Shown: positions 9,806-32,079, counted from the first letter of the stretch. The stretch: 64,000 bases of DNA from a virus (IMGVR_UViG_3300040801_001572:1-64000); one strand, 5' to 3'. Made by a program: numbers and translations. Notes: generated by a model not told the origin, from the letters alone.

Positions 9806-10018
9806 ATGATTTGGTACACTGTTATCATGCTGTGGTATGCTGTTGCCTGGGGATTCTTCCGTGCTATTGCTTGCGTATGTGCTGCTGCTGTGCTTACGTA
9901 CATGTATCCTGGTGACCACTGGCAAGTGTCAATGTACCTGTGGACTGTGCTTACTGTGCTGTGTGTAACGCCTAGTTTGCTTGCTGCTGTGGCTGCAGGA
10001 GTCTACATTGGTAAATAG
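9806..10018 (+). CDS. small membrane protein
   Basis: AGGAGG SD; hydrophobic. Confidence 0.7.
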   Translation: MIWYTVIMLWYAVAWGFFRAIACVCAAAVLTYMYPGDHWQVSMYLWTVLTVLCVTPSLLAAVAAGVYIGK

Positions 10019-10023
10019 CTAGT

Positions 10024-10413
10024 ATGAGCATTTCACTACTAGCTAACGTCCAAGAAACTGTCAACGCAATTGATCAAGGTCTTCGCCCAGTCGTAGACGA
10101 CGGACGCGGAGATATCTACGTACTTAATACCTCCCGCAAACAGTTCGGCAACTTAGTGTTCACGCAGTTCGATCGTAACACACTGTTTCCTATTGCTAGC
10201 TTCACAGTGAGATATGGAACTCAGCATGTAATCAACGAAGTCCTATTCGGGGCTTTCTCTAGCAGGCGACAACTCGAAGAGATCATCGACATGGAGATCC
10301 CTGGTCAGGTCCGAGAAGAGTTCGACCCACGTATCATCCCTGGTTGCACCCCTACCTTCCCAACTGAGGTTTCGGATACACAAGGTACCCCAAAGTTCAT
10401 ACAAGGTACTTGA
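10024..10413 (+). CDS. hypothetical protein
   Basis: operonic; stop inside TTGACA. Confidence 0.7.
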   Translation: MSISLLANVQETVNAIDQGLRPVVDDGRGDIYVLNTSRKQFGNLVFTQFDRNTLFPIASFTVRYGTQHVINEVLFGAFSSRRQLEEIIDMEIPGQVREEFDPRIIPGCTPTFPTEVSDTQGTPKFIQGT

Positions 10414-10460
10414 CATTTCCATCCAATGTGCTATAATGTGGCACAGTTAGATAGGAGATG
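10410..10460 (+). promoter_or_regulatory. sigma70-type early promoter
   Basis: TTGACA-16-TATAAT, cagttagataggagat. Confidence 0.85.
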
Positions 10461-10465
10461 CAGAC

Positions 10466-10777
10466 ATGATACAAGTAACGCTGATAGACCAGACGATTGC
10501 GAAGAAGCGCAGTGACGTTACCTTCACTGAGATCCTCAAGTACAAGTCACACAAGCTGCGCGTTCGTATCCGTAGCAATAGCTACGACTTCCAAAACTCT
10601 GCAGTCATTGACCGGTGGGATGGCGCCAAGTGGAACGTGGTATACACTATCCCCTACACTGCGATGACCACTCCGGACGGACTGGCAACTGTACGTGAGC
10701 CTGCAACCATGCTGGGCAAATACTTCCTGGATGATCGCGAGAAGCTGGTCAAAATGGCCCTGAAAATTATTTCCTAA
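10466..10777 (+). CDS. hypothetical protein
   Basis: SD + promoter. Confidence 0.75.
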   Translation: MIQVTLIDQTIAKKRSDVTFTEILKYKSHKLRVRIRSNSYDFQNSAVIDRWDGAKWNVVYTIPYTAMTTPDGLATVREPATMLGKYFLDDREKLVKMALKIIS

Positions 10778-10856
10778 AAGGGTTGACTTTCAATCCTAGT
10801 GAAGGCATAATGTGTTTGTTGGCTGTTAGGAGCCAGCGACACACAGGAGAAAGAAC

Positions 10857-11165
10857 ATGTTGCAAGAAATTCGCGTACAGATCAACGAAGCTGGTGACTA
10901 CTTTACCACTACGCCGTTCCAGCTGAGCCAGTGGCGCACTGGACTGAAGCTGGAGCACGAGACGGGCATGTCACTGTCACGTGGCCAGAAGGTATCAACG
11001 CACCTGCGCAAGCTGTTTGGCTGGAAGCGTTCAGTCAAGATCAGCACCATGTACAATGCGGTATGCCAGATCCAGAAGGACGTTGACGAGTCGCTGGGCC
11101 TGGAGCCGCGTGAGTTCCCCAAGCTGGGCCAGTACTGGAAAGACAAGCAAGAGAGCGCCGCTTAG
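10857..11165 (+). CDS. hypothetical protein
   Basis: promoter TTGACT-17-CATAAT at 10783; AGGAG SD. Confidence 0.75.
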   Translation: MLQEIRVQINEAGDYFTTTPFQLSQWRTGLKLEHETGMSLSRGQKVSTHLRKLFGWKRSVKISTMYNAVCQIQKDVDESLGLEPREFPKLGQYWKDKQESAA

Positions 11166-11193
11166 GCGCTCCACTCCCCAGGAGGATTCCAAA

Positions 11194-11496
11194 ATGGAAA
11201 TGGATTCACGAGACATCGGTCTGATGATCGTTGGTGTGCAAGAAGGCGTCTCAGTAACTGTGTGGCGACCTGGTACTAGCACTGTGCTGATCAAGGACCC
11301 TGTGACCTGGGTGGACCTGGACTGCTTCTCGGTTGACACGGAGATGACTCCGGACGAGATGATTCGCTACGTTGGCGAACGCATCCAGGAAGCCGATGAC
11401 CTGTGCGACGATGGTCAGCCCACCGAGTACGAAGAGTGGCAAGACTTCCACGGTGGTGACGATTGGGACCACGGCCAGTTCAACGACGGTTGCTGA
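11194..11496 (+). CDS. hypothetical acidic protein
   Basis: AGGAGG SD before ATG 11194; DGQPTEYEEWQDF. Confidence 0.7.
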   Translation: MEMDSRDIGLMIVGVQEGVSVTVWRPGTSTVLIKDPVTWVDLDCFSVDTEMTPDEMIRYVGERIQEADDLCDDGQPTEYEEWQDFHGGDDWDHGQFNDGC

Positions 11497-11679
11497 GGGG
11501 TTGACTTTTGGATGGATTAGTGCTAAAGGATTGGCTGGAAAATAATTTAAATTTCTGGTTGACGAAAGGCACAAGTTTCCATATAATTGTTTTTGAAAGT
11601 TAGGCATACACTGCTTTCAGGGCGTTGCGCTAGGCCCATACTAAACTAGACGCACTGACATATATCAGAGGAGATCACT

Positions 11680-12039
11680 ATGTCAAAGGCAAAAACCAAG
11701 CGCGAGATCGCTAACGGTGTTTTCAACAAGGCTCTGCCCACCCGCGAGAAAGTCGGTGATCGCAAGTTTCGCCAGAACGTCCTGGTAGCGATCGAGAAGC
11801 GCACTGGCGCCACTCGTCCGCAGGCTGCTACGCTGTACAACTTCGCCAAGAAGACTGCTGTTGCTGCCGGCCTGACCCCCGACTTCAGCCGCTCTGCCAA
11901 CACTGCCAATGTACCCCAGCCCGCCGAAGGCGACAACTGGAAGGCCGTGGACAAGGAGTCCGGCGAGATCCTGGGATACGGTCCGAGCCGCGCCAAGACC
12001 CGCGCTGCCTTCGAAGGTGCAACCGTCAGCAAGATCTAA
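11680..12039 (+). CDS. small basic putative DNA-binding protein, related to 5190-5552
   Basis: promoter TTGACG-17-TATAAT at 11559; AATLYN. Confidence 0.8.
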   Translation: MSKAKTKREIANGVFNKALPTREKVGDRKFRQNVLVAIEKRTGATRPQAATLYNFAKKTAVAAGLTPDFSRSANTANVPQPAEGDNWKAVDKESGEILGYGPSRAKTRAAFEGATVSKI

Positions 12040-12063
12040 CGCTGTCGGCCATCCAGGTCTTAC

Positions 12064-12087
12064 AGGGCTCTTCGGGGCCCTTTTTTT
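12064..12087 (+). terminator. intrinsic terminator
   Basis: agggctc-ttcg-gggccct + T run. Confidence 0.85.
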
Positions 12088-12203
12088 ATGGCCCCACTTG
12101 GTTGACATTCCATTCAAAAGATAGTAAGCATGGTTGGAAATTAATGGTTGACTTTCAACCTGCTGAATGTATACTAGTGGACAGTTAGGTAGGAGATGCA
12201 GAC

Positions 12204-12425
12204 ATGAGTTTAGACCTCGTTATTAAGTACAAAGCGCACAACGAACGCATCACGCAGATTCGTGACCTTGCTGCTGAAGCTGTGTTGCTTGAAGAAGCTG
12301 CTATACAAGCTGAGCGCAAGTTCGACCACGAGAAGGCGGAAGAGCTGCGCCACGACAAGCGCAATGCACAGAGCTTGATCGGTATGCTGGTCATTAACTC
12401 ACTCAAGGAACAAGGAGAGCTGTAA
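12204..12425 (+). CDS. hypothetical coiled-coil protein
   Basis: promoter at 12148; cagttaggtaggagat. Confidence 0.7.
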   Translation: MSLDLVIKYKAHNERITQIRDLAAEAVLLEEAAIQAERKFDHEKAEELRHDKRNAQSLIGMLVINSLKEQGEL

Positions 12426-12682
12426 TGGGCGCTGACACGTTCACAGCTACCGAAGCGGAAGTCGAGAAAGCTCGCATCGGGATCGAGATGCAGGCTCAGG
12501 CCGCTGGGTTGGATTTCGAAGACCCCAAGGTACGCCGGTTCCTGGACCAGATGATCGAGACCACCGCTGCCCACTTGGCCTGTGAGCGGTTCCAGCAAGA
12601 TGTGATCCATCGGGTCACTGCAGAAGGACACTGGTCACCCGATGGCTGCCAACACGTACACAAGCCCGAGGAGGAAGTCTAA
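12425..12682 (+). CDS. hypothetical protein
   Basis: TAATG overlap. Confidence 0.7.
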   Translation: MGADTFTATEAEVEKARIGIEMQAQAAGLDFEDPKVRRFLDQMIETTAAHLACERFQQDVIHRVTAEGHWSPDGCQHVHKPEEEV

Positions 12683-12846
12683 TGTATTTCGCAGTCTTCC
12701 TCACAGCGGTACTGATGGCGTCCGGGTTCAAACGTTTGCCCGATCAACCGGCCCTTGTTATCGCGGTTTCTATCATCTTCCTAGCCATGTGCCGGTCGGA
12801 GTATCTGAAAGATAAGAAACGGCGTGAGATTGAAACTAGTGGTTGA
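12682..12846 (+). CDS. small membrane protein (54 aa)
   Basis: GGAGG SD; stop inside TTGACA. Confidence 0.6.
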   Translation: MYFAVFLTAVLMASGFKRLPDQPALVIAVSIIFLAMCRSEYLKDKKRREIETSG

Positions 12847-12901
12847 CATTCCATCCAACTGTGCTATACTAGCGGACAGTTAGGAAACGAGGAGAACTGC
12901 A

Positions 12902-13132
12902 ATGGCAACTAACATGGCAACTGGTGAAGAGATGTTTGCCGCTGGCATGATGAATCTCGGAGGGTCTGGCTGCGGTACCTACGAGTATTTCTGGAGGCCT
13001 GGAACTACCACAGTGTACATGCGCAACATTGACACCGATGACATGCGCGAGTGGGGAGAGTTTGACACTGTGCCCGAGGATGCCGAGGAAGCCGAGGTAC
13101 TCATAGAATATATGGAAGGGGACGAATGGTAA
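12902..13132 (+). CDS. hypothetical acidic protein
   Basis: promoter at 12843; WRPGT motif shared with 11194-11496. Confidence 0.7.
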   Translation: MATNMATGEEMFAAGMMNLGGSGCGTYEYFWRPGTTTVYMRNIDTDDMREWGEFDTVPEDAEEAEVLIEYMEGDEW

Positions 13133-13293
13133 TGGAAAAGTCTACGAAGGTACGTTACTCCACTCGTAAGTATGACGGCGATGACCAGTATAGCTGGGCA
13201 GTCTTCGCCAGCAACCAAACCCACCCCGTGGTAACGGGCTGCTCTAGATCTGAAGCGCAGTACCACAAGAAAAAGCTCGAAAAGAAAGGTTGA
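13132..13293 (+). CDS. hypothetical protein (53 aa)
   Basis: RKYDGDDQYSWAVF; TAATG overlap; stop inside TTGACA. Confidence 0.65.
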   Translation: MEKSTKVRYSTRKYDGDDQYSWAVFASNQTHPVVTGCSRSEAQYHKKKLEKKG

Positions 13294-13346
13294 CATTTCC
13301 AACCAAGACGCTATACTAGTGGACAGTTAGGAAAGGAGCACGGAAC

Positions 13347-13775
13347 ATGAGCAACGAAGTCATCGAGCACATCAAGCAGATCAACGAAGAGAGCCGCAAG
13401 CGCATGGCCGACAACCCCAACCTGTTCATTGGTCTCCTCACTGAGGACCCCAACCACTGGGAAGAGTACAAGACCGTTGAAGAGTTCGAGGTGGCCATGG
13501 CCAAGGAGAGCTTCATTAACGTGTTCAAGAGCTACGAGGGCATCAAGCCTCGCTGGGAAGACTTCACCCACGAAGATGGTACTCCGATGACTTCCAAGGA
13601 GATCAACAAGATGACCTCCGACTTCATCGAGCGGGAGGAGAAGTGGGCACGGGAAGAGGCCGAGCGTGAAGAACGCGAAGAGCGCGAGCGTAAGGCCCGT
13701 GTAGCCAAGCAGGCTCGTGAGTGCACCCCTACACTGGGTGACGTGTTCGGTGACGTGCTGAGAGGTGCACTGTGA
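13347..13775 (+). CDS. hypothetical protein
   Basis: promoter at 13290; cagttaggaaaggag. Confidence 0.8.
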   Translation: MSNEVIEHIKQINEESRKRMADNPNLFIGLLTEDPNHWEEYKTVEEFEVAMAKESFINVFKSYEGIKPRWEDFTHEDGTPMTSKEINKMTSDFIEREEKWAREEAEREEREERERKARVAKQARECTPTLGDVFGDVLRGAL

Positions 13776-14005
13776 AGACTGTAGAGGGTGTCATTGGACT
13801 GAAGGTAGCCAACGGCAGTATGTCCGTTCAGGAAGCCGACAGGATGCTGCGGCACTATCGATCAGAGCTGGCGTTCATCCAAGCTGGCAAGGACGATACC
13901 GAGATCCCCAAGTTCCCCTGGGGACTAGCATGGGCAATCACTATACCTTGGTTCGTGTTCGGTGCAGTTCACATCTTCTACTTAGTAGCGGAGTTAGTAT
14001 CATGA
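13772..14005 (+). CDS. small membrane protein
   Basis: GTGA overlap; C-terminal TM segment. Confidence 0.65.
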   Translation: MKTVEGVIGLKVANGSMSVQEADRMLRHYRSELAFIQAGKDDTEIPKFPWGLAWAITIPWFVFGAVHIFYLVAELVS

Positions 14006-14385
14006 CCATATCCACAAAGTTTGGTAGCCGCTGGTACGAGTTCCCGAATCACAGTCAAGTCCAAGATGCATACGTGCTCTGGGGCGATGGCTGGGAGGAC
14101 GAGGAAGGTGACCAGGAGGCTTTCGAGAACGAAATGACTGCTCGAGGTATTGACTGGATCTTCGATGAGAGTGCCTTGGTGGATTCCTATGTCGACGAAG
14201 CACTGGAGGAATCGGAACTCGGGCAGCATTGCCGCTACATTGAAAGCCAGTTTGAAGGTCTGGCCCAGAGCGAAGACTATCCGATGATGCTCCAGGTGCG
14301 AGACTCCGAAGGTGGTCAGACCAACTGGCTGAATATCACGCCTCGCCAGGCCCAAAAGATCAAACAGATCCTCCGAGACGAGTAA
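14002..14385 (+). CDS. hypothetical acidic protein
   Basis: ATGA overlap at 14002. Confidence 0.7.
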   Translation: MTISTKFGSRWYEFPNHSQVQDAYVLWGDGWEDEEGDQEAFENEMTARGIDWIFDESALVDSYVDEALEESELGQHCRYIESQFEGLAQSEDYPMMLQVRDSEGGQTNWLNITPRQAQKIKQILRDE

Positions 14386-14460
14386 CCACTGTATAAATGT
14401 ACAGTTGACAAAAGTTTCCATCCTGCTATACTAGTGGACAGTTAGGTAGGAGATGAAACA

Positions 14461-14910
14461 ATGGCAAAGCAGAAATTGGTAACGCGCCAGCAGGTCATTG
14501 CAATCGTGAACGCCAAGTGGGAAGCGGCACAGAAAGGTGACACCGAAGCACGCCGCTTCCTGGAACAGTACATCGGCAAGGCTCTGATGGTACTGTTGGA
14601 TCGTCAGACGCAAGACGAGCAACGCGACACCACTGTGAAGTACCGCAACGAAATGGGCTTCACTGGCGCTGATGGACGTAGTGGCACTATTGCTGCTCGC
14701 ACCTACCTCAAGTACAAGGGCTTCCCGGAAGACTGGATGCTGAAGCAATGGGTCAAGCCCAATCGCAGAGGCGTGCCGCGTATCGCCAAGTACTGGAGAC
14801 AGCTGAACGAAGCTGCTATCCAGAAGGCCCGAAAGGCAGCCTACCAACAACTGAAACTGAACACTGGTTGCACTGCAGAAGACTATCGCACTGCAACCCA
14901 CGGAGCGTAA
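14461..14910 (+). CDS. hypothetical protein (QTxDE...NxxGF...D motif)
   Basis: promoter at 14405; SD. Confidence 0.8.
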   Translation: MAKQKLVTRQQVIAIVNAKWEAAQKGDTEARRFLEQYIGKALMVLLDRQTQDEQRDTTVKYRNEMGFTGADGRSGTIAARTYLKYKGFPEDWMLKQWVKPNRRGVPRIAKYWRQLNEAAIQKARKAAYQQLKLNTGCTAEDYRTATHGA

Positions 14911-14911
14911 C

Positions 14912-15097
14912 ATGTACTTCGACAACTGCGGACTCGTAACCGACGATCAGGGTGACCAGCGCATTTACATTGCCTGGAGACATGTGCACGGGATCATGAA
15001 GTGGCTCCAGGACGGGAAGTCCTACTTGACCTACCCTGGGCATTCATTCACTCGCCAGCAAGTAGGCTTCCTACTTGCTTACTATGGAGAGGACTAA
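14912..15097 (+). CDS. hypothetical protein
   Basis: GGAG SD. Confidence 0.6.
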   Translation: MYFDNCGLVTDDQGDQRIYIAWRHVHGIMKWLQDGKSYLTYPGHSFTRQQVGFLLAYYGED

Positions 15098-15098
15098 A

Positions 15099-15383
15099 AT
15101 GCAGGCAGTAGCCCTACTCGAGATCCATCGCAAGTTCCACGGCAAGGTGCGAGAGTTTCGATTCCAGAATTCCCAGTACCGTGGCTTCTATGGTGCTCTG
15201 GTCGATGATCCGCAGATGGTGGCCCAGCGCACTGCCGTTCACGCAGTCCGGCACGATCCCCACCTCACTGCTCAGCTCAGTTTCATGAGCTTCGACACCA
15301 ACGAGCTGCCCGACTATAGCAAGTGGTGGCACGTGAAGGTGGACCGCACCAACGTTGATGACTACCAGGAGATTGATCTGTGA
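15099..15383 (+). CDS. hypothetical protein
   Basis: GAGG SD before ATG 15099. Confidence 0.65.
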   Translation: MQAVALLEIHRKFHGKVREFRFQNSQYRGFYGALVDDPQMVAQRTAVHAVRHDPHLTAQLSFMSFDTNELPDYSKWWHVKVDRTNVDDYQEIDL

Positions 15384-15613
15384 AGAGTGTATTGACCTCC
15401 ATTGTGCATCACCAGTTCGCTCAGTGTTGCATCCAAAACACATTGGTAGAGCTTGGCAGGCATCCTCGTAAGTTCGAGCTCGATCAAGCCCGCTGGCGCG
15501 CCGACGAGTTCATCCAGCTGGCCAATCAAAGCTGGGGCCGTGGTAACTGGTACATCACAGGCTTCCGCAGAGTAGGAGTCTTCCTGCGCCCCAGGGTGAG
15601 GTTGACAAACTGA
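15380..15613 (+). CDS. hypothetical protein
   Basis: GTGA overlap. Confidence 0.55.
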   Translation: MKSVLTSIVHHQFAQCCIQNTLVELGRHPRKFELDQARWRADEFIQLANQSWGRGNWYITGFRRVGVFLRPRVRLTN

Positions 15614-15736
15614 CCAATTGATGCTATAGCCACCCAAAAAGAAATGGTCGAATAAATGGTTGACGTTGGGGCTGGTTGGATGTATCATGTGTTTTGTTAG
15701 CTGTTAGGAGCTAGCAACAACACACAGGAGATAGAA

Positions 15737-16846
15737 ATGTTTTTTGTTAAGATTGAAAACGCCAAGCACAGAAATCAAAAAGTGCCCGTTGATGTCTACC
15801 CTGTCGTTAAGGACTACGACGAAGACAAGGGTCAGATGACGATCCTCACTGACGGGAAGACCAAGCCCTTCCAAGTCAAGAACGCTCGCATCAAGCTGGA
15901 CGAGGGCGACTTCTTCTACTGCAACAAGGACGGGGAAGCTATTGACCCGGACACGATCCGCTCTATGCAGAGCGCTGCAGGCGAAGTTGAAACTGACGAA
16001 GCTGCTATTGCTGAGTTCCTCGCTAACGAAAGCGAAGACGACGCAATGGAGCGCATCGGCAAGCAGTTCCAAATGCTGGAGCGTATCACTGACGCGAGTG
16101 CGCGAGGCATTGTGCGCGGGCTTGTAGTGAGTGGTCCTCCCGGCATCGGTAAGAGCTTCGGCGTGTACAAGCAATTGGCCGAAGCGAACCTGACCCGCAA
16201 GCTTGCAGACGACGCTACCTGCTACGACATCGTGAAAGGCACTTGTACTGCGATCGCACTGTATCAGTCGCTGTACTTGAATCGTCACAAGGGCTTCGTT
16301 ACTGTGTTCGACGACTGTGACGACATCCTGTTCGACGACACTTGCCTGAACATGCTCAAGGCAGCACTGGACTCGGGCAACAAGCGCATACTGAGCTATC
16401 GCGCAGAGAGCCGTGTGCTGAAGGAAGCTGACATCCCCGACAGCTTCGAGTTCGAGGGCAGCATCATCTTCCTTACGAACTTGGACTTCGAGGCCCTGAG
16501 CCAGTCGGACAAGAAGAAGGCCATGCACTTGGGTGCTATCGTGTCGCGCTGTCACTACCTGGACTTGGAGATCAGCACTCAGCGTGATCAGCTGCTTCGC
16601 ATCAAGCAGATTGTACGCGCAGGCATGCTGGACGAGTTCGAGTTTGAGAACGGCGAAGAGCAGATGATCGTAGACTGGATCTTCCAGGAAGCGAACTACT
16701 TGCGTGAGCTGAGCCTGCGCATGGTCAAGAAGATTGCTGACTTCGTAGCAGCTGAACCTAACAACTGGGAAGACTTTGCTGTGAGCACTTGCTTGCGCAA
16801 GGACGCTCGTTACAGAAGGATGCTGGAGGCCAAGAAGGAGTCCTAA
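15737..16846 (+). CDS. AAA+ ATPase
   Basis: Walker A GPPGIGKS, Walker B VFDDCD, sensor-1 IFLTN, arginine finger SR; promoter at 15660. Confidence 0.9.
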   Translation: MFFVKIENAKHRNQKVPVDVYPVVKDYDEDKGQMTILTDGKTKPFQVKNARIKLDEGDFFYCNKDGEAIDPDTIRSMQSAAGEVETDEAAIAEFLANESEDDAMERIGKQFQMLERITDASARGIVRGLVVSGPPGIGKSFGVYKQLAEANLTRKLADDATCYDIVKGTCTAIALYQSLYLNRHKGFVTVFDDCDDILFDDTCLNMLKAALDSGNKRILSYRAESRVLKEADIPDSFEFEGSIIFLTNLDFEALSQSDKKKAMHLGAIVSRCHYLDLEISTQRDQLLRIKQIVRAGMLDEFEFENGEEQMIVDWIFQEANYLRELSLRMVKKIADFVAAEPNNWEDFAVSTCLRKDARYRRMLEAKKES

Positions 16847-16884
16847 GGGACTCCAACCTCCCCCGACCGAACATCTCCTGACCT

Positions 16885-16911
16885 GGACGCCCTAACACGG
16901 CGTCCTTTTTT
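16885..16911 (+). terminator. intrinsic terminator
   Basis: ggacgcc...ggcgtcc + T run. Confidence 0.8.
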
Positions 16912-16989
16912 GTTGGAGCCATTTCGAGCTTGCGCTCCAACACAGGAGCCCGGTATACTGTGCCCAACAATAACAAAGGAGGTTCAGCA

Positions 16990-17178
16990 ATGAACACACA
17001 ACTAGTCCTGGTCAACACAGAGACCAACGAAGCAACATTCTTTTCTACCATCACTGATGCAGCTCAGTACCTGCGTCGTGACACCAGCACTGTGAGTCGT
17101 GCGCTGAGTGGCGATCGTAACTGCCGCACTGTAGCAGGCCACGTAGCAGTAGCAGTACCTGAGTACCTGCTAGGCTAA
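16990..17178 (+). CDS. stand-alone NUMOD1-like HTH protein
   Basis: FxTIxDAAxxL...VSRAL...TVAGH; GGAGG SD. Confidence 0.7.
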   Translation: MNTQLVLVNTETNEATFFSTITDAAQYLRRDTSTVSRALSGDRNCRTVAGHVAVAVPEYLLG

Positions 17179-17202
17179 CACACTGCTAGCCCCCTACCCG
17201 AT

Positions 17203-17226
17203 AAGCCCGCTCCGTGCGGGCTTTTT
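17203..17226 (+). terminator. intrinsic terminator
   Basis: aagcccgc-tccgt-gcgggctt + T run. Confidence 0.85.
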
Positions 17227-17294
17227 CTTGGATTGACATTTTGGTCCATTGGCAGTATCATATGCTTGTTAGTTAGGAGTTAGGAGATCAACCC

Positions 17295-18044
17295 ATGCAC
17301 AACCTGAGCCAACTCAAGCGTGAATGTGAACAGCGCATTGAAGAGACCATCCAGAAGGTTGAAGCACACTACGACATCGAGTTCCCCCGTGTGCCTATCG
17401 TGTGGAGTCGCAAGATGACATCCACTGCTGGTACTGCTCGGTACTCGCGATTGACCTACAAGCCCGTTCGCATCACACTGAGCGAGCCCTTGCTGAAACT
17501 GAACCCCACTGAGTTCGTGGACGACACCCCTGCCCACGAAGCAGTACACCTGCTGGCCAACTTCATTCACCAAACGGACTGTGGTCATGGTCCCAAGTGG
17601 AAGAGCATGATGCGCTTGGTAGGTGCACCCACAGATCGTACTCACAACATGGAGACGCCCAAGACTGGTACCGCACACCACTGTCGCTGTCGTGTGTATC
17701 ACCTGGGCCCAGTTCGCACTCGCAAGATTGCCAACGGCTTAGCTTACACCTGCAAGACCTGTAAGCACAAGCTGGTAAGGGGCATGGGTCCTTTCCAGTC
17801 AGCCAGTGACCGAGTAGAGGTCCGCCCTGAGAAGCCGCAGGAGAAACTGTTCCGCCCCGAAACTGAGTCAGGTACCAAGAGCTCCATGGTGCGTGATTGG
17901 ATCCGCAAGTTTCAGAAGTCGGGCATCATGGACGCGAATGTGATCTGCGGCTCGGACAAGATCATGAGTGAGATCTGTGCATCAACTGGTTTGGATCTCG
18001 CCCTGGCCCGCAAGTATGTACGCAACAACTGGAGCAAGGTATGA
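17295..18044 (+). CDS. SprT-like zinc metalloprotease
   Basis: AGxA, HEAVH (HExxH), HGPKWK, CxC/CxxC; promoter at 17234. Confidence 0.85.
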   Translation: MHNLSQLKRECEQRIEETIQKVEAHYDIEFPRVPIVWSRKMTSTAGTARYSRLTYKPVRITLSEPLLKLNPTEFVDDTPAHEAVHLLANFIHQTDCGHGPKWKSMMRLVGAPTDRTHNMETPKTGTAHHCRCRVYHLGPVRTRKIANGLAYTCKTCKHKLVRGMGPFQSASDRVEVRPEKPQEKLFRPETESGTKSSMVRDWIRKFQKSGIMDANVICGSDKIMSEICASTGLDLALARKYVRNNWSKV

Positions 18045-18613
18045 AGCGACTGGCACGTAAGATGGCAGGCCCACTGTGCTTGATACTGATGGGCGCACTG
18101 TTCGGACTGGTAATAGGAGTACAACTATGAACTGGCTCAAGTTTGTGGGAGCACTGGTAATCTTGCTCCTCATATCGTTCATGGCAGTGAGAGCATTCCA
18201 AATGCTGTGCGAAGACCAGGGGTCAGACGAATGAGACTGATACCTTTCTTGTTGCTCATTGTGTTTCTAATGGGCGCACTGATCACTGTGATGCTATCGG
18301 AATGGGATGCCCAGTATGAAAGAAGCCAAGCGGAAAGAGTCAGAGATGCCATTGGTCATGTGTCTACCCGTGATCATATGGATCGTGTGTGAACTCAGTT
18401 ACAGAGTGTAGGAGGAAGGTAATGTACAGCCCTAGAAGAGGATGGGTGATACACCATATAGTCATACTGGTTATCAACGCAGTGGGCTTTGGTGCGCTGA
18501 TGCCCATCGACGCGATCGCGTACAAGATGCTGACTGCCTTGGGAGCAATGACATCCACTTGGCTGCTACTGAGCGAAGTGTTTCGAAAGGCACCCGAGGA
18601 GAGCAGTGACTGA
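18041..18613 (+). other. four coupled small membrane ORFs (18041-18130, 18127-18234, 18231-18392, 18422-18613)
   Basis: ATGA overlaps or SD; 1-2 hydrophobic segments each. Confidence 0.65.
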
Positions 18614-19004
18614 GTGACTTCCTAAAATATCCCACGGAGCCGGCTGTGTGCTGAAAACCCCAGAACTTGGAAGCCGGTGGCAATCCGCTACTCAAATTTT
18701 TTGGGTACAGTATAGGCCTCCCCTCCGTATACTATTAATGCCCCTCTCTAGAACTATTCACTAACTGTGTGCTCTACTGTATATGCATAATCTGTGTTCT
18801 CAATCTGGGTGAGCTAGATATATGGGCAAATCTCACTTTAACTTGTAAAAATACCCCTCAAACCGGGCAAAATCACAGAACAAATCCGGTCTGCATAATG
18901 TGAGCAAGGGTTTTGGTTTTTGAATGTATTCGACCCGAAATCATAAGTTGACTATTCACTAACTGTGCTGTACAGTGTGAGCTCTATTAACTGAGTTACT
19001 CACT
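18614..19004. other. non-coding gap with a direct repeat and promoter-like motif
   Basis: actattcactaactgtg at ~18753 and ~18951; TTGACT-17-TACAGT at 18948. Confidence 0.5.
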
Positions 19005-20587
19005 ATGCACAAGCGTCAAGTACAAGGTATTCAATTTGAAGCGGGCTACACAGGCTTTATGGTTGGTTTAGGGATAGCTATGAGCATGGCAGCATTTCAG
19101 CAAAGTGAAACATTCATAGGTTGGGTGTTTGCTGTGGGTAGCTTGTCACTTTTTGGCTTGTTTGTACGCAACTACATTCGTGCACCAGGAGAAACAGATT
19201 AATGTTTAACTCATTCTTTTTAGGTGTGCTGTTTGCAAGCTCTACCATAGTGAGCGTGTCAGCAGTGGTAGGTGCAGGTCCATTTTCAATAGCGCTAGCA
19301 AGTGGTGCTATCAGTGTAGCTTCACTGTTTGGGTTTTGGTATATTTCACGATGACATTCAATTCTGTACAACTCAATCGTTTTACTGGGGCAGTATTCAC
19401 TGTGCTGGGTTTTGTGCTGCTGGGTTCCGAAACAGATGCTCACTTGGGGATATGCTTGCTGGCAGGAATGGGCATATTTGTAGGTGGGGTATTCACAGGA
19501 GCAGCTACTCGTGAGTAACTTGGATAGATTCACTGCCGTTGTTACTGCGGTTTGGTACTTGGTATTCGTGCCCTGGTTTGTGATCACATTTACTGATTCT
19601 GCGTGGGCGTGGTTTGTGCTGGGTGTGATTGTGGTCCTAGCACTGGTTGATCTGTATGTGCTTTGTGTACATCGTGTGTGGCCATGGCAGTGGTATCGGC
19701 TTAGAGAGGAACACAATGACTAAATGGGCGTGGGCTGCGGCAGCGGCGGCGTGGTTCAGTCTAGCGGTGTGGGTCTTGTTTCTCGACCTGGGCCCAGATT
19801 GCCAGCCGGATATCAGCCAGAGCTGTGTGCTGGTGCCAGCCCTAGGTCTAGCTGTGTTTGTGGCTCTGTGTGCTGTGTGCATGGCACAAGCTGTGTGTTA
19901 TCCCGGAGAGGCAGATGACTAAACTGACCAAACTGTTGATCTGTGGTGGTAGTTTGATTGTGGGTGGTACTGCTATGACTCTTGCGGGCTCGGATCTGGG
20001 CTTGATCGGATGCTTTCTGGGTGGACTGCTCTTAGGTCGAGCTGTTAGACTGTGGGATTCAGGAGAAAACCTGTGAGCTTTCGACCTTTCCGTGATCTGC
20101 GAGACAACTTTACTCTAATTGCGTTTGCAGCAGGTGTTTCGGTTGGAGCGTTCCTAACTGCTCCTTCGGTGACTACTCTGCTGGCTGTGGTGGGTTGTGC
20201 TGTAGTTACCCGACTGGCCTATCTTAGATCGGAGAAAACTGATGAATTTTAATCCTATTGAAAACCCCCTAGATGAGCTGTGTGTGAACTGCTTTATCTC
20301 AGGTATCCTGGCAACCATGTGCTATTTTCGGCCCAGCTTTCTAGCTGCGTTCTGTGTGTCGGTTGCTATTATCCTTACTTACCGAGCCTATTCTAAAACT
20401 CGGCAGGAGATGACAGATGAAGTTTAACCCCTTTGAAAACTCTATTGATATGTTGACTGTCCAAGCTGTTCTTTCGGGCGCGATCCTGGGAGTGTTTGTC
20501 AGTAATAAGCCCAGTATGGTTGGTGCTGTGTTTCTGGGACTGGCAGCAGTGTTCCTGGTCCAAGCATACAGGCGTGTGCGAAGATAA
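19005..20587 (+). other. nine small 2-TM ORFs (19005-19202, 19202-19354, 19351-19518, 19511-19723, 19716-19922, 19915-20076, 20073-20252, 20242-20427, 20417-20587)
   Basis: continuous start/stop overlaps; hydrophobic; last three are paralogs. Confidence 0.7.
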
Positions 20588-20639
20588 CTGTGCTGATAAT
20601 TGTTCAGGGAGAAACCAGCGCTAGCGGCGGGCTGCGGCG

Positions 20640-23600
20640 GTGAGATCCGAACTCCACAGCTTCCTGGGCGTGATCCTTCTGCTCTGGAACTGTTTTCAAA
20701 CAGGCATGACTGCGATCATATTCTCCATTGAGCAGTTCGGTGATCTAAACGTTGTGGTTGCGGGTCTTATGCTTGGGTTTGGTATGTGGTACACCATGAA
20801 CTTCGCTGGGCATTGGATGGATCCAAGAAGCACCGAGGAACAACTGGGTGGGTGAAACTGGTGTACTTTTACTGTGCATAGTGATCACGGTGTGGTACCT
20901 AGTCACAGTGTCTTTGACTGCTGCACTGCTAGGACACTATGTTGATGTGAGTGATGCTCTGCTGGTGTTCTTTTGGGGTATTGCTACCTGCGCGAATGTG
21001 ATCAATTATATGGAAAGTGTACACCTGGAGAGTCGTTTATGAACCCGGGATTTGTAGCTGTGCACATCGGTCAGATCATATGGTACTGGGCACTGGCTAG
21101 CTTGTGTTCTGAAGCGATGTATGCTGCTAATGAACTTTGGTGGGTTAGCAAACCGGCCACTGTGAGCTCAGTGGCTATTCCTATCATGCTTCACTGCCTC
21201 AACAACTTGATCAGCATGGACGACTTTTAATGCTCATGCCCTTTCGAACTGCTCTTGGTGTGATTGTGATCCTGTGGTGTTGCACACTGGGCGGTGCAGT
21301 GGCCCAGGCACTAGAGTTAGTGGAAACAGCACTGAACTGGCCCCGGGGCATTTTATCTCTCAGTTGGATGGTGTTCACAGTGTATTCTGCACTGAACTGG
21401 GTAGACGGTGTAGCGCCAGAGGAGATGGAGTGGTGAGTGGCTGGCAAATGACACTGGGTGTATGCTTCATAGTATGGTGGAGCTCGGTTGCTTCGAGCAT
21501 AACCACATTCTGGATATTTTACGGCATGAACTTGGGTGACATACCTGTTGTGCTGTGTGTGCTGACTCTGTGCCTCGTGAACAGTTTTCGATGTGCCGAA
21601 CTGTGCTGGAATCCGCAGCAGTGGTACTATAGGATGATGCTGCAATGATAAGTCCGTGGGAACTGCTTGGTACTCTGTGTACCATAGTATGGTGTATGTT
21701 TATGATCAGTCTCATACTGTCTGTATCACTGTACATTGTGTCTCCTTATCTTTTGAGCGCGATTGCCATAGCAGTGTCGATAGTTTCTACTGTGCTGTTT
21801 GGTCTCAATCTTTCAGAAATTATACATCCCACCCCCCGTTCTCCCGGTGACTTTTTTAGCCATGGATTTTAGTCCGGGGTGGTTAACGGTTCACAGCACA
21901 CTACAGATAGTGACCTGTAGCTTAGGCGCTGTGTACTGTGCACAAAGTTTCACAGAAGCCGGAGTGCTGGTATCAATGCTGTTTGTGTTTACCACGTGGT
22001 GGTTGTTCAACATGCTGGAATATTGCTGGGAAGAGCAGAGGGCACCCCTATGAGTTTTCGCACTAGGGCCACAGTGTTTTGGTTTTTTGCACAGTACATG
22101 ATAGTGTCAAGTGGAATACTGATTTCGATGCCAGGAAATGGAGCTCTTCCAATCGCAATAGGGTTCGTACTGTTTAACATTCATGCGTGTTATAACTTTG
22201 ATCGAGAGCCCCAATCAACAATATGGTACTGGCATGAGTGAATCGCAATACATGGACATAGCTTCTTTTGGTGCTCTCTGGTGTATAGCACTGGGTGTAC
22301 TTGGAGGCTGGTTCTGCTTGAACTACAATGCAGTGTGGGCACTTCTGTACATGGCGATGTGCGCTGGCACAGGACTGAACTGGATTTTCTGGTGTGTTAG
22401 TCAGACACATTATTTCCATTTTCGATTCGGAGATGCCTAAGTGACTGGCAGAAGCCGGCCCAGGTCTGGCAGCTCTAGCTGGCTGTTCATAATCTCATCG
22501 GTCAGCTATGGCTTTGCAGGCAGTACCATGTTCATGTTGATACTAATGGGCATCCTAAATGATCCAATCACTGTATCAGCTGCACTGGTGGTAGGAACAC
22601 TGTATATTCATCAGATTCATCTGTTTGTGAAGCTAATACCGTGACAGTTCAGTTTCGTTGGATATTTTTATTAGTGCTATTTGTGTGCATAGGCAACAGT
22701 GTGTACAGCACCTGCTTAGAAAACTTTGAGCATCCTGAGTTAGTGTTGGGCTCAATGACTGCGATGATGGTAAACTTCGGTACTGTAATGAACTTAGCTC
22801 GTTGTGCTCAATCGTGACTAGTGGAACAAAACATACCCTTGTACAGTTACTGAACCTAGTAACATGGGGTGCAATTGCAGTACTGTGTAACCACATCGAG
22901 GTCAGTCCCCACCCTGCTGTGAGCTTTTTACTGTGGTTCTTTTTGGTAGTGACCACAGTGTTGCTATTTCTTCATCCTTTTTGTTATTATGCACAAGGAC
23001 GAAGCGACAAGGGATCAACGGAACCATGGTAACTGCTACAAAGTCTATCTTGCAGGGTATCCTTGTGCTTTGGATGCTGGCTAACCTAGCTCTTGCTTTG
23101 TTGGCAATTGGCGGGGGCCTAGGACTACTAGTATTCTGGGGAGATTGGGACGCAGCAGTTACAGCTGGTCACATATTGTATTCCCAGTCGTCGCAGATGA
23201 CATTTGCTGTGTTCGCGTATTCCGAGATCGAAGAGATTTGATATGTTGGCATTGTTTTTCAGTGCAATGACTGTGGTGGCTCTGCTGTTTTATGGAATAG
23301 TGACGTTGCTGTGGCTAGATACTAAACAGTACCATCGTCGAGCAAAAGGATGGTGTGCTTCGGTTATCGTTTCGTCTATGTTTGCGATGTTACTCACAGT
23401 AGGCCTAATTGATTATCAATTAGTCAAACCGGAAGCTCACGCATTGCTAGCTTCGTTTGGTGCACTAAGCGTGTTCGTATTGACAGGGATATACGGAGAT
23501 TTAATTCACGACATGACTTTGATAGATTGGTGGGACGATGACAGTTAACATTCAGGTGATGGTTAACAAATTATCATTCTTTATACACGTCGGTCTGTTT

Positions 23601-23947
23601 GTGGCTATCGCACTGAGCATGGTGTTCCGAGGTGTGCACGATATTGTGACTGAGTGCCTGTTCTTTAGTCTGCTTGTGATAATTCCCTTAGGTATGGGCT
23701 TTGGTTCGGAGGATGAATGAAACTTACAAATCTTTTGTGTCCAGCTGATCTTTCATCTGCTAGCAACTCGGAACTGGTGTTAATGTTCTTTCGGCAGAGT
23801 TTCAGTCTAGCAGTGACTCTTATTCTGTCGTTGCTTGCATGGCACTGGTGGATCCTTGTGTTGTTGGCCTTCCTTGCTTGGTTGTCTGGATCGTTCTGCT
23901 ATCACGGATGGCAAGAGCTTGAGCGTCGGCTAGACAGTGACAGTTGA
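20640..23947 (+). other. sixteen small membrane ORFs (starts 20640, 20848, 21039, 21230, 21433, 21645, 21862, 22050, 22234, 22441, 22641, 22814, 23026, 23243, 23538, 23717)
   Basis: overlapping or abutting starts/stops; about 2 TM segments each; Trp/Cys-rich. Confidence 0.65.
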
Positions 23948-24145
23948 AGAACTCATAACTGCCTTTTTCTCTGCCACGTGCTTCTGTTCTGTGATGACCG
24001 CAGGGCTCGTTGTGCAATCGGCAGGACTGGGATGTGTGATGCTGTATTTCACACTGCTGTTCATGCTACCAATGGTTTCCGACGATATGTCGCCTGGATT
24101 GCTTTGATCTAATAAATAACTGCATCACTGTTGTTGGAGATATCG

Positions 24146-27100
24146 ATGCACTGGCCGTGGCAACCGAAACAGAACGAACTGGACAGCCAATCCTTGCGTC
24201 GCCTAAAACAGTGGTACAGAATTCTCCTCGCTTCACGTTATATCTTTACTGCTGCACTGCTAATATCTTTGCTTGTGCTGATATCAAACTCACTGTTTGT
24301 GCCTTGCTTAATCTTACCCCTTATGTGGTGGTATATGTGGTGGATTTTGGGCAAATTTATCGACGATGTGGTGGATTATGCCCAAGACATCGTGGTATAC
24401 GATCATTGTCCTAAATTCAAGCACAAAATCTAATTGACATTACCACAGTTTGGTGCCATACTTCACTGAACTAAATGTGTTGCTAGAGGAAACACTGTGA
24501 CCGCTAATCGTATTGGGCCAGGCTGGCTAATCTTCATGGGTGTTATTTTTGTGCTACAGGCCCTAGGCGCTGTTGCTCTTCAAACAGCATCAGAAATTCT
24601 CGCATTTGTTGGCATCGGCTGTTTCTTTGTGTACGAGCTTGTACGCTACATGCGACAGGTAGAATGGTCCGATTGGCATCGTAATCAATTCTTTGCATTC
24701 GGGTGTTTCTTTCTCATGATGGCATTTTATGCAGACCCAGATCCGTCTGGGTTTGGACAGGTCTTGAAATGGTTCTACATACTGGGCACAGTGTGGTTCA
24801 CTTTCGGACTCATCGGAATCTACTATCAGTCAGTGAGAGGCGAAGATGATTAAATATGTGCTGATCCTGTTCATCAATTTTGGTCATCCGGATATTCCCA
24901 GCGACCAGTGGAGCATCTCGGTAACCAAGATCGACAAACAGTTCCAGAGCGAGAAAGACTGTCACCAGTTCGCTCGTGAAATACGAGAAGCAAACAACAT
25001 GTTGAGCAAGGTCACGGAAGCTCACATTTGCCAACCTGTGGAGTTCGAGGCGCCATGAACCAAACGATCAATTGGAAAATCCGTCTGTTCCATACCAAGA
25101 GCAGTTTTTACTGGCTGTGGACCGGAACACTGTTCTTTGGCCTTGCTGCAAGATTCTTGGTGTTACGAGGAACCGTAGAAGCCGAGCAAGTCTCCTTGCT
25201 TACTGTGTGCATAGGCATGCTGTGTGTGAGTGGCACTATTGCTTACGTAATGGCACACAAGGTTCGCCACGAATTTGATAAAGTGAGAGTTTCTAAGTGG
25301 CACAGAGAACGTTACACCGAAGAATAATGGACAGAAATGATCCGGTGTGTAACCTTGCAGGTGCAACACTTTGGTTCATTGTCGCTATCGGTCAGTTTCT
25401 TCTGCTCGAAGATTATCACTCAGAGTCAATACCATTTATGACAGTGATGGTTGCGGTTTCCGTTGCATGTTCTGTGCTGTTAGCAACCGGCCAGATATTC
25501 ACTGCATACGAAAACTACACCAAGCACACTGTTGAGTCGATAGAAGTAGCACAGTGGATTCGCTTCCGAAACAGCTAGATCCAGGACGCTACGCAACCAT
25601 GTGTGACTACATTCAGTGTGGCATCGACAATGGTCTGGATATAGAAGAAATCACTCCCTGTGATCTGCATACCGAACTTTGCGACTATGCAGATCTTCCT
25701 CAAGAGTTAGGTATTTCTTCCAGAGATCTACAAACCTATCTTTTTTATTGGTACTGGTTACGATAACAGGATAGCCGCTAAATAACAGTATCAATTCCAA
25801 CGAGGCAGAGATGCTGCAAAAACTGTATTTAGGGCTATGTTTTACTCTGCTGTTTTCTGCAATGGGCTTCTTCTTTCTCGCTGCATACACACTGCACTGG
25901 CTATGGGCAGGCTTAATGATATTGTGCTTAATAGCAGCTCAAGGATCATGGCGACGAATGGAGCGTCTTCAAGACCGTCGGCCTGATTGACAATATCGCC
26001 AACATGTCTTATAATTACGGCATGTCAAACTCTGATAACGAACAACCTATACTGCTCGGCAATTTTTTGCTGTTTTTTGGGCACGCCTTAGGAATTTTCC
26101 TTGCATATCTTACGCTGGGTGCAATATTCGCGCCAGGCGAGAAAGTATGGCTCGGTATACTGTTGATGGGAGGAATCACTGTCTGGCAGGCACGTAGCAC
26201 AGGAATACTCCAGCAAAGAATGAGATCTTTAGAACAAAACGATCATGAAGAATAGAAAACCTAAACCACCTTTTTTGTTTTTTCCGTCTGAGGGGAAGGA
26301 TTTAGACAAGCTGAAAAAAGAGCTGCTGGTTCTAGTGAACGGACTGATCATCGGAATAACAGTTTCTGTGTTGTCGTTTTGGTTTGCATTTACTGTTGCG
26401 ACTATTTTGCCAATGGCCGAGCTTAATCCTGTCTTAGAATTTTTAGCAGTAGCATGGATAGCTGCTACCCTAATCGGCAGCATGTTTCTGTCATATCTGT
26501 CAGTTAGCACAATCAGTTCAATCAGTTCCAAGATCAGAGCGATAAGGAGCAAGAGAAATGACCTCAGGAGTAACACAACGAGCTAAAGACAAGCTGATGG
26601 TTCTTGCTGGTCTAATTTTGTTTTTGTTGGGCACTGTGGTAGGAGTTTACATGAGGCCAGACATACCTAGTCTAGAACCAGTAATGGAAACCTACGCACA
26701 AATGGAAACCCAGTTCTCTAATCTTGCTGCGGCTTGTGCTAGACCGCAGCAAGGCACAGTCACAATTACAGGCGAAGATATTGTCGATGCTGTTCGAAAC
26801 AAACAGCTTCGATTTATCGTCAACACTGAAACTGTCGGAGGCACTCCGGTTAGATGAGTTTCATTGATCATCATCGACTGCAATCTATTACTTCTCGTGC
26901 TGCTAGAACTAATATACGTCAAGTAATGCGTCGAATAAAAGAGAACGAGCAGGAACTGCACGATAAGATCGCAAATACGTTTCATTGCGGATTTGCTTTC
27001 ATGCCGGTTCGACTGTCAAATGGAAAGTGGATCTGGCTCAAGAAATACTATTACAATTTTTTGCCTAAAGAAACACGACCGGGCGACAAATACTTTTCGT

Positions 27101-27271
27101 CATTGGTAAGGTACGTTCCTAGTCGCAAAAAAGACATAAAATTAACCCCAGATGAATATCTCATACGGAAGTTAAAAAATGGCTGAGGTACTAGGCTTCT
27201 TAGTAGTTACTGGGTTTTGTATCGGTTTCTGCTGGCTAGTATACCAAGGCGATCCCTGGAAAAAGAAATGA
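24146..27271 (+). other. further small ORFs, mostly membrane (24146-24433, 24497-24853, 24846-25058, 25055-25327, 25327-25578, 25554-25766, 25811-25990, 26022-26255, 26245-26586, 26558-26857, 26854-27186, 27179-27271)
   Basis: SDs and overlaps; sigma70 promoters at 24435 and 25987; 25554 and 26854 are soluble. Confidence 0.65.
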
Positions 27272-31407: not shown

Positions 31408-32079
31408 TTAATCTCCCATTTGAATTCTTAACGTGTATGTCACTTCCAGTGTTCTGTTCAATGATTTTTGAACTGGGTGGAAAATAACATGAGTAATTAG
31501 TATTTTGTCTGCTTCGGCGAGGAAGTTGTTAATTGAAGATTGATCTTCTAGCACAGATCCTCCGCCTGTTCCAATTTCGCCTGTATACAAAGCAATTTCG
31601 TTGAACACAAAGTTGCTCTGTGTATCTGAGTTAGCTTGGTCGTTAACGTTACCTGCGTTATCAATATTCTGTTGTGTTGAAGGTGTGCCTGGTTCTAGAA
31701 CCACTGTGGTCACGATATCTTCAAAGTTAGAAGTGTTGCCGCCTGGAACGTCTACATCGACATCTCCGAGTGGATTGTCGTTGTTGTCTAGTTCGTAAAT
31801 AAGAACAGTGTTGTAAAGCTGATCATTTGGATTTTTATTTACGCTAGTGTTAGTGTCTCTGTAAATAATATTACCGGCGTTGTCTACGATGACTCCGCCG
31901 TTGCCGAATGCCATGTATCTAATAAAAGAATCGTTGCGTCCGGTCAGTGCTTGAGCAATTTCAGTACTGATATTCCCGAAATGAATTGCATTGTCTTTGT
32001 CTACAATCACTTCGCCAGTGTCACGATCACGTATTGTGATATGACCTTTGATAAAGCTTTTCAATGTTTCGCCCAGCAT
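31408..32079 (-). CDS. virion structural (baseplate) protein
   Basis: GHI.I.D...NAIH...FGNGG...THVIFHPVQKS; position in tail module. Confidence 0.7.
   Translation of the reverse strand: MLGETLKSFIKGHITIRDRDTGEVIVDKDNAIHFGNISTEIAQALTGRNDSFIRYMAFGNGGVIVDNAGNIIYRDTNTSVNKNPNDQLYNTVLIYELDNNDNPLGDVDVDVPGGNTSNFEDIVTTVVLEPGTPSTQQNIDNAGNVNDQANSDTQSNFVFNEIALYTGEIGTGGGSVLEDQSSINNFLAEADKILITHVIFHPVQKSLNRTLEVTYTLRIQMGD

Follow-up and report, generated by a model that had tools for sequence, protein, structure and literature searches.

The window analysed here, the whole 64,000-nucleotide (nt) stretch IMGVR_UViG_3300040801_001572:1-64000, covers the opening 64 kb of a linear virus record of 114,654 bp that CheckV rates as 31% complete, and between positions 18041 and 27271 it carries a chain of 42 plus-strand open reading frames (ORFs), g1 to g42, of 29 to 118 amino acids (aa) with a median of 66 (Table 1). 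A preliminary description of the window had claimed about 39 tiny, translationally coupled membrane proteins at this place; the gene model built from the ORF listing and the candidate starts bears this out, with 42 ORFs in the chain, 38 or 39 of them encoding hydrophobic products of the membrane type. Consecutive ORFs overlap by 1 to 29 nt at 31 of the 41 junctions, mostly as ATGA or GTGA. In particular, 4-nt overlaps of the latter kind occur at 13 junctions, 8-nt overlaps at seven, 11-nt overlaps at six and 1-nt overlaps of the TAATG type at three, with single cases of 7 and 29 nt; two junctions abut, and eight have a spacer, of 13 to 63 nt or, in one case, of 391 nt.

The membrane character of the products was assessed with hydropathy windows and not with a trained predictor, a transmembrane (TM) segment being defined as a 19-residue window with a mean Kyte-Doolittle hydropathy of at least 1.6. 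Such a segment is present in 38 of the 42 proteins, and an uncharged hydrophobic run of at least 15 residues is present in 39. The helix count per TM protein ranges from one to four, and about 27 of the proteins resemble two-helix hairpins; a single helix is found in g1 to g3, g40 and g42, three helices in g27 and about four in g32, and the soluble members are g33, g36 and g41. The richness in Trp and Cys mentioned in the preliminary description was confirmed by comparison with the 26 long genes of the phage (Trp, 3.5% versus 1.2%; Cys, 2.4% versus 0.5%).

The distribution of charges around the hydrophobic segments is asymmetric. Lys and Arg outnumber Asp and Glu in the N-terminal tails (55 versus 31), and the opposite holds for the loops between helices (18 versus 42; Fisher p=9e-5), which is the pattern expected from the positive-inside rule for hairpins with a cytoplasmic N terminus and the loop outside. 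The C-terminal tails are basic first and acidic at the end, with 62 acidic versus 34 basic residues in the last six positions. These acidic C termini are partly a side effect of the coupling, since the GGAG or GAGG core of the next gene's Shine-Dalgarno sequence (SD) is read as Gly, Glu and Arg codons. Furthermore, small-xxx-small-xxx-small motifs occur in 17 of the 42 proteins and GxxxG in 16; small-xxx-small and GxxxG motifs mediate helix packing. We consider the TM proteins of the array to be very probably membrane inserted.

To what extent such a chain could arise by chance was estimated with a dynamic-programming search for the best ORF chain, blind to the gene model, on the region and on 200 dinucleotide-preserving shuffles of it. 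The best chain covers 96.2% of the plus strand, compared to 73.5±3.1% in the shuffles (maximum, 82%) and 71% on the minus strand; junctions falling within -11 to +1 nt number 33, compared to 11.0±3.0 (maximum, 20) and 7; and TM-bearing ORFs number 38, compared to 6.8±2.4 (maximum, 15) and 1. Coverage, coupling and TM content thus lie 7 to 13 standard deviations above the shuffles, and the minus strand resembles the shuffles. Since both fall far short of what is observed, G/T-rich composition by itself does not yield the pattern of the array.

An SD core (GGAG, GAGG or AGGA) lies 4 to 17 nt upstream of 25 of the 42 starts, compared to 30 of the 641 other ATG, GTG and TTG codons of the region (4.7%; binomial p~7e-23), an enrichment that is slightly circular because SDs guided the choice of a few starts. 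A scan of the 114-kb contig counted 15, 14 and 8 small TM ORFs per 3 kb between 18 and 27 kb, and elsewhere 0 to 2 where the plus strand codes and up to 5, a noise level, where the minus strand codes. The longest minus-strand ORFs of the array have TTG starts and low-complexity translations rich in Thr, Ser, His and Gln. Nine of the ten gene models that were looked up are letter-for-letter the same as JGI/IMG gene calls. The correlation of relative synonymous codon usage (RSCU) with the long genes, 0.65 in frame versus 0.56 in one antisense frame, is a modest difference on which we do not lean. There is little doubt, then, that the ORFs of the array are real genes; the earlier view that they are no by-product of G/T-rich DNA holds in light of the shuffles, the SD enrichment, the positive-inside charges, the agreement with the IMG calls and the frame-specific paralogs described below.

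Comparison of the array proteins with one another, against composition-preserving shuffles, served as an internal substitute for frame conservation across relatives. The pairs that stand out are g12/g13 (shuffle z of 19.6), g11/g12 (9.0), g11/g13 (7.1), g34/g35 (6.9), g27/g39 (5.3) and g14/g17 (5.0), and the top BLAST score within the array, 38.5 bits, exceeds those of all 60 shuffled sets (maximum, 28.9). Nucleotide identity between paralogs is just 0.40 to 0.50, and most of the identical residues are specified by differing codons (12 of 20 in g12/g13, 13 of 16 in g11/g13 and 14 of 20 in g14/g17). Moreover, the called frame scores best in all five pairs compared (89 versus at most 34, 56 versus at most 38, 56 versus at most 31, 52 versus at most 38 and 50 versus at most 46). 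Because residues are kept on diverged codons and similarity peaks in the called frame, the pattern looks like protein-level purifying selection after duplication, in seven genes. The g11 to g13 family retains M1, F3, P5, D11, G21, a Pro-Ser turn and an Ala-Tyr pair, and the AlphaFold2 model of g12, computed from the three-row alignment of this family, is a helical hairpin with helices at residues 9 to 29 and 33 to 60 (mean predicted local distance difference test [pLDDT], 73).

The 17 kb preceding the array have a different transcriptional layout. Positions 576 to 17290 hold about 20 strong, near-consensus sigma70-type promoters, roughly one per small gene, each followed by a common GTTAG...AGGAG leader. 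The 9.2 kb of the array contain only three sigma70-like sites and no strong terminator, so that the early promoter of its own for each small gene, the trait of promoter-early stem-loop (PeSL) cassettes, is not found there. The promoter at 17233 probably drives the gene of the SprT-like protease and, with it, g1 to g4, which are probably early genes because this early promoter precedes the protease gene and the stop codon of that gene overlaps the g1 start. The 391-nt gap after g4 is the probable start of a long operon comprising g5 to g31, a run of 27 genes (19005-24433) with neither a strong promoter nor a strong terminator between them. Within this gap, the reverse complement of the repeated TATTCACTAACTGTG includes the early leader word CAGTTAG, and a promoter-like sequence on the minus strand (TTGAGA-16-TACAGT, 18803-18776) would direct leftward transcription, antisense to g1 to g4. 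The G+C content at third codon positions drops in steps, from 0.62 in the early block (576-17200) through 0.49 and then 0.45 in the two parts of the array to 0.39 to 0.41 in the late genes and the remainder. Possibly, the early genes are adapted to the tRNAs of the host, ahead of the expression of the phage's own tRNA arrays.

As for the phage itself, tail-fibre-like proteins are encoded in a minus-strand block at 28.5-52.8 kb, together with a virion protein of 3488 aa, a baseplate wedge protein of 1207 aa and a hub/lysozyme-like protein. The wedge protein shares 43% identity, along its entire length, with its counterpart in PA5oct, a jumbo phage of Pseudomonas, and in the kin of that phage, and it is 33 to 41% identical to those of Atu_ph07, SCTP-2 and RaK2-like phages; judging from these genes, the source is a jumbo myovirus, distantly related to PA5oct. 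PA5oct is arranged in the same way: a long plus-strand arm of small hypothetical genes runs towards tail-fibre genes on the minus strand, the 11.5-kb gene of a virion protein and the wedge gene. The array sits at the inner end of the small-gene arm. The equivalent genes of PA5oct are small but not hydrophobic, with a TM segment in 17 of 81 and in none of the 17 nearest the tail fibres. At the site corresponding to the array (39446-43467), PA5oct has about 16 tightly packed non-hydrophobic genes of 54 to 85 aa, alike in composition (Ile/Asn/Tyr rich), which may represent a different lineage-specific array of small genes.

The closest relative found was reached through the 223-aa gene at 31408-32079, which is 56% identical to a gene of the metagenome contig Ga0181372_1000001 (319,623 bp). 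The 10-kb flank of the match on that contig stops within a long tail-fibre block: a giant protein (more than 3228 aa) is followed by nine more same-strand genes, of 115 to 469 aa, at the place of the tail-fibre genes of the source phage, and this block is much longer than that of the window. Through a 68%-identical gene, this contig led to a further IMG/VR record, where the block converging on the tail fibres consists of ORFs of 100 to 230 aa without TM segments. The region beside the wedge gene in Salicola phage SCTP-2 is not syntenic. The AAA gene at 15737-16846 has counterparts at 20 IMG/VR loci (41 to 46% identity), none with a homologue of the array or a comparable TM array, and the adjacent SprT-like gene has no match in IMG/VR or the JGI metagenomes. 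On these comparisons, the membrane array is specific to the source phage or to its unsampled near kin.

Homology searches were also made with the array itself. Its DNA has no match by megablast or blastn among 50,697 phage records, and the TM proteins have no meaningful match in Pfam, PHROGs, NCBIfam or PADLOC; g41 is the sole member with a clear family match, in PHROGs. An exhaustive HMMER search of 1.8 billion representative proteins with g32 returned g32 itself and one match of 28% identity (E=4e-4); g41 and a profile of g11 to g13 retrieved only themselves among 5.8 billion proteins; tblastn with g39 and g40 found nothing in the 50,697 phage genomes; and g27 had no score of at least 0.9 in the ESM Atlas. 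The soluble genes flanking the array are ORFans too, so the ORFan status of the array reflects poor sampling of the lineage. Weak Pfam matches to NrsF, Ibs_toxin, DUF7649, UbiA, NfeD_membrane, Na_H_Exchanger and DUF2127 (E of 0.001 to 0.01) and one in NCBIfam (E=0.007) are non-significant for 42 proteins, and PADLOC gave none. The DNA of this uncultured phage occurs in four runs of one microbial-mat metagenome study, whose contigs, at a depth of about 2 to 7, have almost no variants.

The reading that we favour, with a probability of about 0.5, is that of a lineage-specific block of about 42 real genes, in the small-gene arm (early or accessory) of the jumbo phage, whose products would mostly be inner-membrane hairpins acting as binders or blockers. 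The computations show the coding signals of the genes, the hydrophobic architecture and charge topology of their products, and the paralogy. According to this model, the 38 or 39 membrane members would be small integral proteins of the inner membrane, for the most part hairpins of two helices whose ends both lie in the cytoplasm, and the genes would be read as a few long, translationally coupled polycistronic messages: g1 to g4 behind the last early promoter, g5 to g31 behind the weak promoter in the 391-nt gap, and g32 to g37 and g38 to g42 behind two further host-type promoters. Part of the growth of the block would be due to tandem duplication, after which the copies diverged fast while selected at the protein level. 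During infection, the proteins would enter the cytoplasmic membrane of the host and there would each separately bind or block membrane proteins; with a varied repertoire, a large number of rival phages might be excluded, or a large number of the host's membrane proteins neutralised, within a dense microbial mat. As to the role, a repertoire of inner-membrane binders serving exclusion or host-membrane takeover is the likeliest that we can propose, and it is put forward tentatively, by analogy with known systems.

Several observations weigh against this interpretation. The functional part is drawn by analogy alone, and no member is linked to a target; homologues were not found for any TM member tested. 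Detectable paralogy concerns only 9 of the 42 genes, and selection is thus shown for a minority. The usage of Trp, Cys, Val, Gly and Phe tracks the G+T richness of the strand, so composition accounts for part of the hydrophobic character. Finally, because PA5oct and the IMG/VR record mentioned above have non-membrane small genes at the same place, a membrane array is not needed by the lineage.

The analogy can be made more precise by comparison with known exclusion proteins. HK97 gp15 is a phage-encoded small inner-membrane protein of superinfection exclusion. The precedent documented best is the Imm protein of T4, a membrane protein of 9.3 kDa that binds the tape-measure protein of an incoming phage and so stops the translocation of its genome (bioRxiv 10.64898/2026.03.06.709160), and SieA is the superinfection-exclusion protein of P22 (PMC10883804). 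The members of the array, as predicted here, share with these proteins the condition of phage-encoded small inner-membrane proteins; different from them, with one gene per phage and an established activity, the array consists of 38 or 39 distinct proteins in a row, known from their sequence. No TM member matches the Imm, Sp or SieA families in PHROGs or Pfam. With respect to an early membrane trait of the Imm type, the architecture fits, and only g1 to g4 lie behind a recognisable early promoter.

Large tandem arrays have been reported for the jumbo phages G and 121Q, where over 30 genes closely resembling one another were ascribed to tandem duplication (Hua et al. 2017, PMC5646251). The array shares with them the jumbo-phage setting and the tandem arrangement of more than 30 small genes. 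Their members are very similar, whereas the array is unified by membrane architecture, and only g11 to g13, g14/g17, g34/g35 and g27/g39 reach a z of at least 5. The preliminary description knew of no described function for an array this large, and on the size a qualification is needed: we found no such array for membrane proteins, but arrays of comparable size are reported for similar genes. What sets the array apart is its size (38 or 39 membrane proteins in 9.2 kb), its mostly unrelated sequences, its site in the small-gene arm and not beside lysis genes, and its organisation in long coupled operons instead of one-promoter cassettes.

Among the alternatives, the one that survives best was also raised in the preliminary description as a nursery of new genes. 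According to it, the ORFs would be translated, mostly young and weakly selected or not selected at all, having arisen from G/T-rich DNA, a ready source of hydrophobic helices, and been kept as harmless in a roomy jumbo genome. Every tested TM member is an ORFan, the relatives carry other small genes at the site, and the excess of Trp, Cys, Val and Gly fits G/T-rich codons, with third-position G at 0.30 in the array versus 0.15 to 0.20 in other gene blocks outside the early region; furthermore, de novo membrane proteins from thymine-rich sequence have been described in yeast (PMC7005711). However, shuffles of the same composition give just 6.8±2.4 TM ORFs and 73% coverage, the translation signals and the coupling are mature, the charges follow the positive-inside rule, and residues of the paralogs are kept on diverged codons; that flanking soluble genes are ORFans as well points to poor sampling of the lineage. 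The ORFan status and the composition-driven residue excess thus speak for the nursery, the translation signals and the selection on paralogs speak against it, and we regard it as unlikely.

A more specific proposal, within the frame of blockers, is an expandable library of two-helix "immunity" hairpins, each of which would jam a different membrane-inserting weapon, namely, the tape-measure proteins or ejection channels of competing phages or the pore-forming effectors of the host's abortive infection. Such a library would correspond, on the side of the phage, to a repertoire of colicin-immunity proteins and would owe its diversity to duplication and rapid divergence. We consider a role this narrowly defined to be rather improbable.

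The coupled genes could also encode the subunits of a single hetero-oligomeric membrane assembly (a channel, a scaffold or a membrane domain), kept equimolar by the coupling. The 27 genes from g5 to g31 appear on one message with overlaps at almost all junctions, and the helix-packing motifs reported above would suit such an assembly. Yet start-stop overlaps are common in phage genomes regardless of function, and relatives lack the array, although conservation would be expected of a structural machine; we therefore hold a single machine to be quite improbable.

Little credence can likewise be given to a role in lysis control, with holins, antiholins or pinholin-like proteins timing lysis. The array proteins do have the size, the one to four TM helices and the charged C termini of holins, which is a generic look, and the acidic C termini also encode the next SD. 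Lysis cassettes of Gordonia phages contain diverse holin-like TM genes with one to four TM helices, as many as four genes to a set (Pollenz et al. 2022, PMC9671378). The actinobacteriophage sets thus share with the array the helix numbers, the high diversity and the occurrence of several TM genes side by side; different from the array, they comprise up to four genes beside endolysins. No holin family was matched in Pfam or PHROGs by any of the 42 proteins, and none of three endolysin domains (Phage_lysozyme, PF00959; Amidase_2, PF01510; SLT, PF01464) occurs in the 114-kb contig, which is about 31% of the genome, so that a distant cassette may exist. Moreover, the neighbour is an SprT-like protease, the first genes lie behind an early-type promoter, and 38 genes exceed the need of any lysis system. 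In the ESM Atlas, one neighbour has a Phage_holin_2 domain, but its score of 0.82 is under the threshold for a lead.

Type I toxins (Ibs, Hok and TisB) were considered and set aside: the one match to Ibs_toxin (E=0.0045) is non-significant over 42 proteins, and the only Rfam match of the window is a tRNA, with no antitoxin RNA. Photosynthetic TM peptides (high-light-inducible proteins [HLIP], light-harvesting antenna peptides and small subunits of photosystem II) are not represented in a Pfam scan of all 42 proteins. Finally, that the chain is an accident of skewed base composition and not made of genes is highly improbable, as the missing homologues and the only moderately better in-frame RSCU are outweighed by the shuffles, the SD enrichment, the charge pattern, the IMG calls, the codon-diverged and frame-specific paralogs, and the TTG starts and low-complexity translations of the long minus-strand ORFs.

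No class of phage genes is less well understood than that of small membrane proteins, which gene callers and family databases often miss; a 9-kb block of 38 or 39 different membrane genes with clean translation signals is an unusually rich and compact test set. If the proteins are specific blockers of membrane proteins, the array would reveal the way in which the envelope of the host is controlled by a giant phage and would be a source of new small inhibitors; if they are mostly inert, it would be a rare case, in a prokaryotic virus, of the birth of membrane micro-genes on a large scale.

Table 1. Genes and other features of the membrane-protein array and its immediate upstream flank (positions counted in the window; TM counts are predictions)
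Feature	Position	Strand	Length	Remarks
Terminator	17203-17223			Precedes last early promoter
Last early sigma70-type promoter	17233..17261	+		TTGACA-17-TATCAT, with shared GTTAG..AGGAG leader
SprT-like zinc metalloprotease	17295..18044	+	249 aa	Pfam PF10263, E=1e-19; stop overlaps g1 start (ATGA)
g1	18041..18130	+	29 aa	1 TM
g2	18127..18234	+	35 aa	1 TM; ATGA overlap; AGGAG SD
g3	18231..18392	+	53 aa	1 TM; ATGA overlap
g4	18422..18613	+	63 aa	2 TM; AGGAGG SD; alternative GTG start 18389
Non-coding gap	18614..19004		391 nt	No credible ORF; at compositional step
Exact direct repeat TATTCACTAACTGTG	18755 and 18953		15 nt	Inside 391-nt gap
Weak promoter	18948-18976	+		TTGACT-17-TACAGT
g5	19005..19202	+	65 aa	1-2 TM; identical to IMG gene call
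g6	19202..19354	+	50 aa	2 TM; 1-nt overlap; IMG call
g7	19351..19518	+	55 aa	2 TM; ATGA; IMG call
g8	19511..19723	+	70 aa	2 TM; Trp-rich tail
g9	19716..19922	+	68 aa	2 TM; 5 Cys; IMG call
g10	19915..20076	+	53 aa	2 TM
g11	20073..20252	+	59 aa	2 TM; paralog of g12, g13
g12	20242..20427	+	61 aa	Helical hairpin (AlphaFold2); paralog family g11-g13
g13	20417..20587	+	56 aa	2 TM; g11-g13 family, 36% identity to g12
g14	20640..20855	+	71 aa	2 TM; start uncertain, no SD; paralog of g17
g15	20848..21042	+	64 aa	2 TM
g16	21039..21230	+	63 aa	Two weaker hydrophobic segments
g17	21230..21436	+	68 aa	2 TM; paralog of g14; IMG call
g18	21433..21648	+	71 aa	2-3 TM; 6 Trp, 5 Cys
g19	21645..21872	+	75 aa	2 TM; IMG call
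g20	21862..22053	+	63 aa	1-2 TM
g21	22050..22241	+	63 aa	2 TM
g22	22234..22440	+	68 aa	2-3 TM; alternative start 22183
g23	22441..22644	+	67 aa	2-3 TM
g24	22641..22817	+	58 aa	2 TM; GTGA overlap
g25	22814..23032	+	72 aa	2 TM
g26	23026..23241	+	71 aa	1-2 TM
g27	23243..23548	+	101 aa	3 TM; IMG call; weak paralog of g39
g28	23538..23720	+	60 aa	2 TM
g29	23717..23947	+	76 aa	2 TM; IMG call
g30	23937..24107	+	56 aa	2 TM
g31	24146..24433	+	95 aa	1-2 TM; 7 Trp
Promoter-like site	24434..24462	+		TTGACA-17-CATACT with extended TG; upstream of g32
g32	24497..24853	+	118 aa	About 4 TM; ORFan
g33	24846..25058	+	70 aa	Soluble or signal-like N terminus
g34	25055..25327	+	90 aa	2 TM; paralog of g35
g35	25327..25578	+	83 aa	2 TM; paralog of g34
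g36	25599..25766	+	55 aa	Acidic; 4 Cys; no TM
g37	25811..25990	+	59 aa	2 TM; start uncertain
Perfect sigma70 consensus	25987..26015	+		TTGACA-17-TATAAT; spacer covers g38 ATG (26004)
g38	26004..26255	+	83 aa	2-3 TM; alternative ATG 26022
g39	26245..26586	+	113 aa	2-3 TM; IMG call
g40	26558..26857	+	99 aa	N-terminal TM anchor and soluble domain of ~65 aa
g41	26854..27186	+	110 aa	Soluble; phrog_7749 E=1e-7, phrog_5613 E=5e-5, both of unknown function
g42	27179..27271	+	30 aa	1 TM

The starts of g4, g14, g22, g25, g32, g37 and g38 are uncertain. For g37, the uncertainty follows from the absence of the exact model from the protein collection. For g32, the version in the database is 105 aa long and its alignment begins at residue 14, so that the start is probably the ATG at 24536. 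In g38, the second in-frame ATG lies about 7 nt past the -10 box of the consensus promoter, and g38 may thus be translated from a leaderless mRNA. The soluble protein g36 has its Cys residues at positions 2, 7, 21 and 28 and an aromatic C terminus (YLFYWYWLR), and it is possibly a small metal-binding protein amid the membrane genes.

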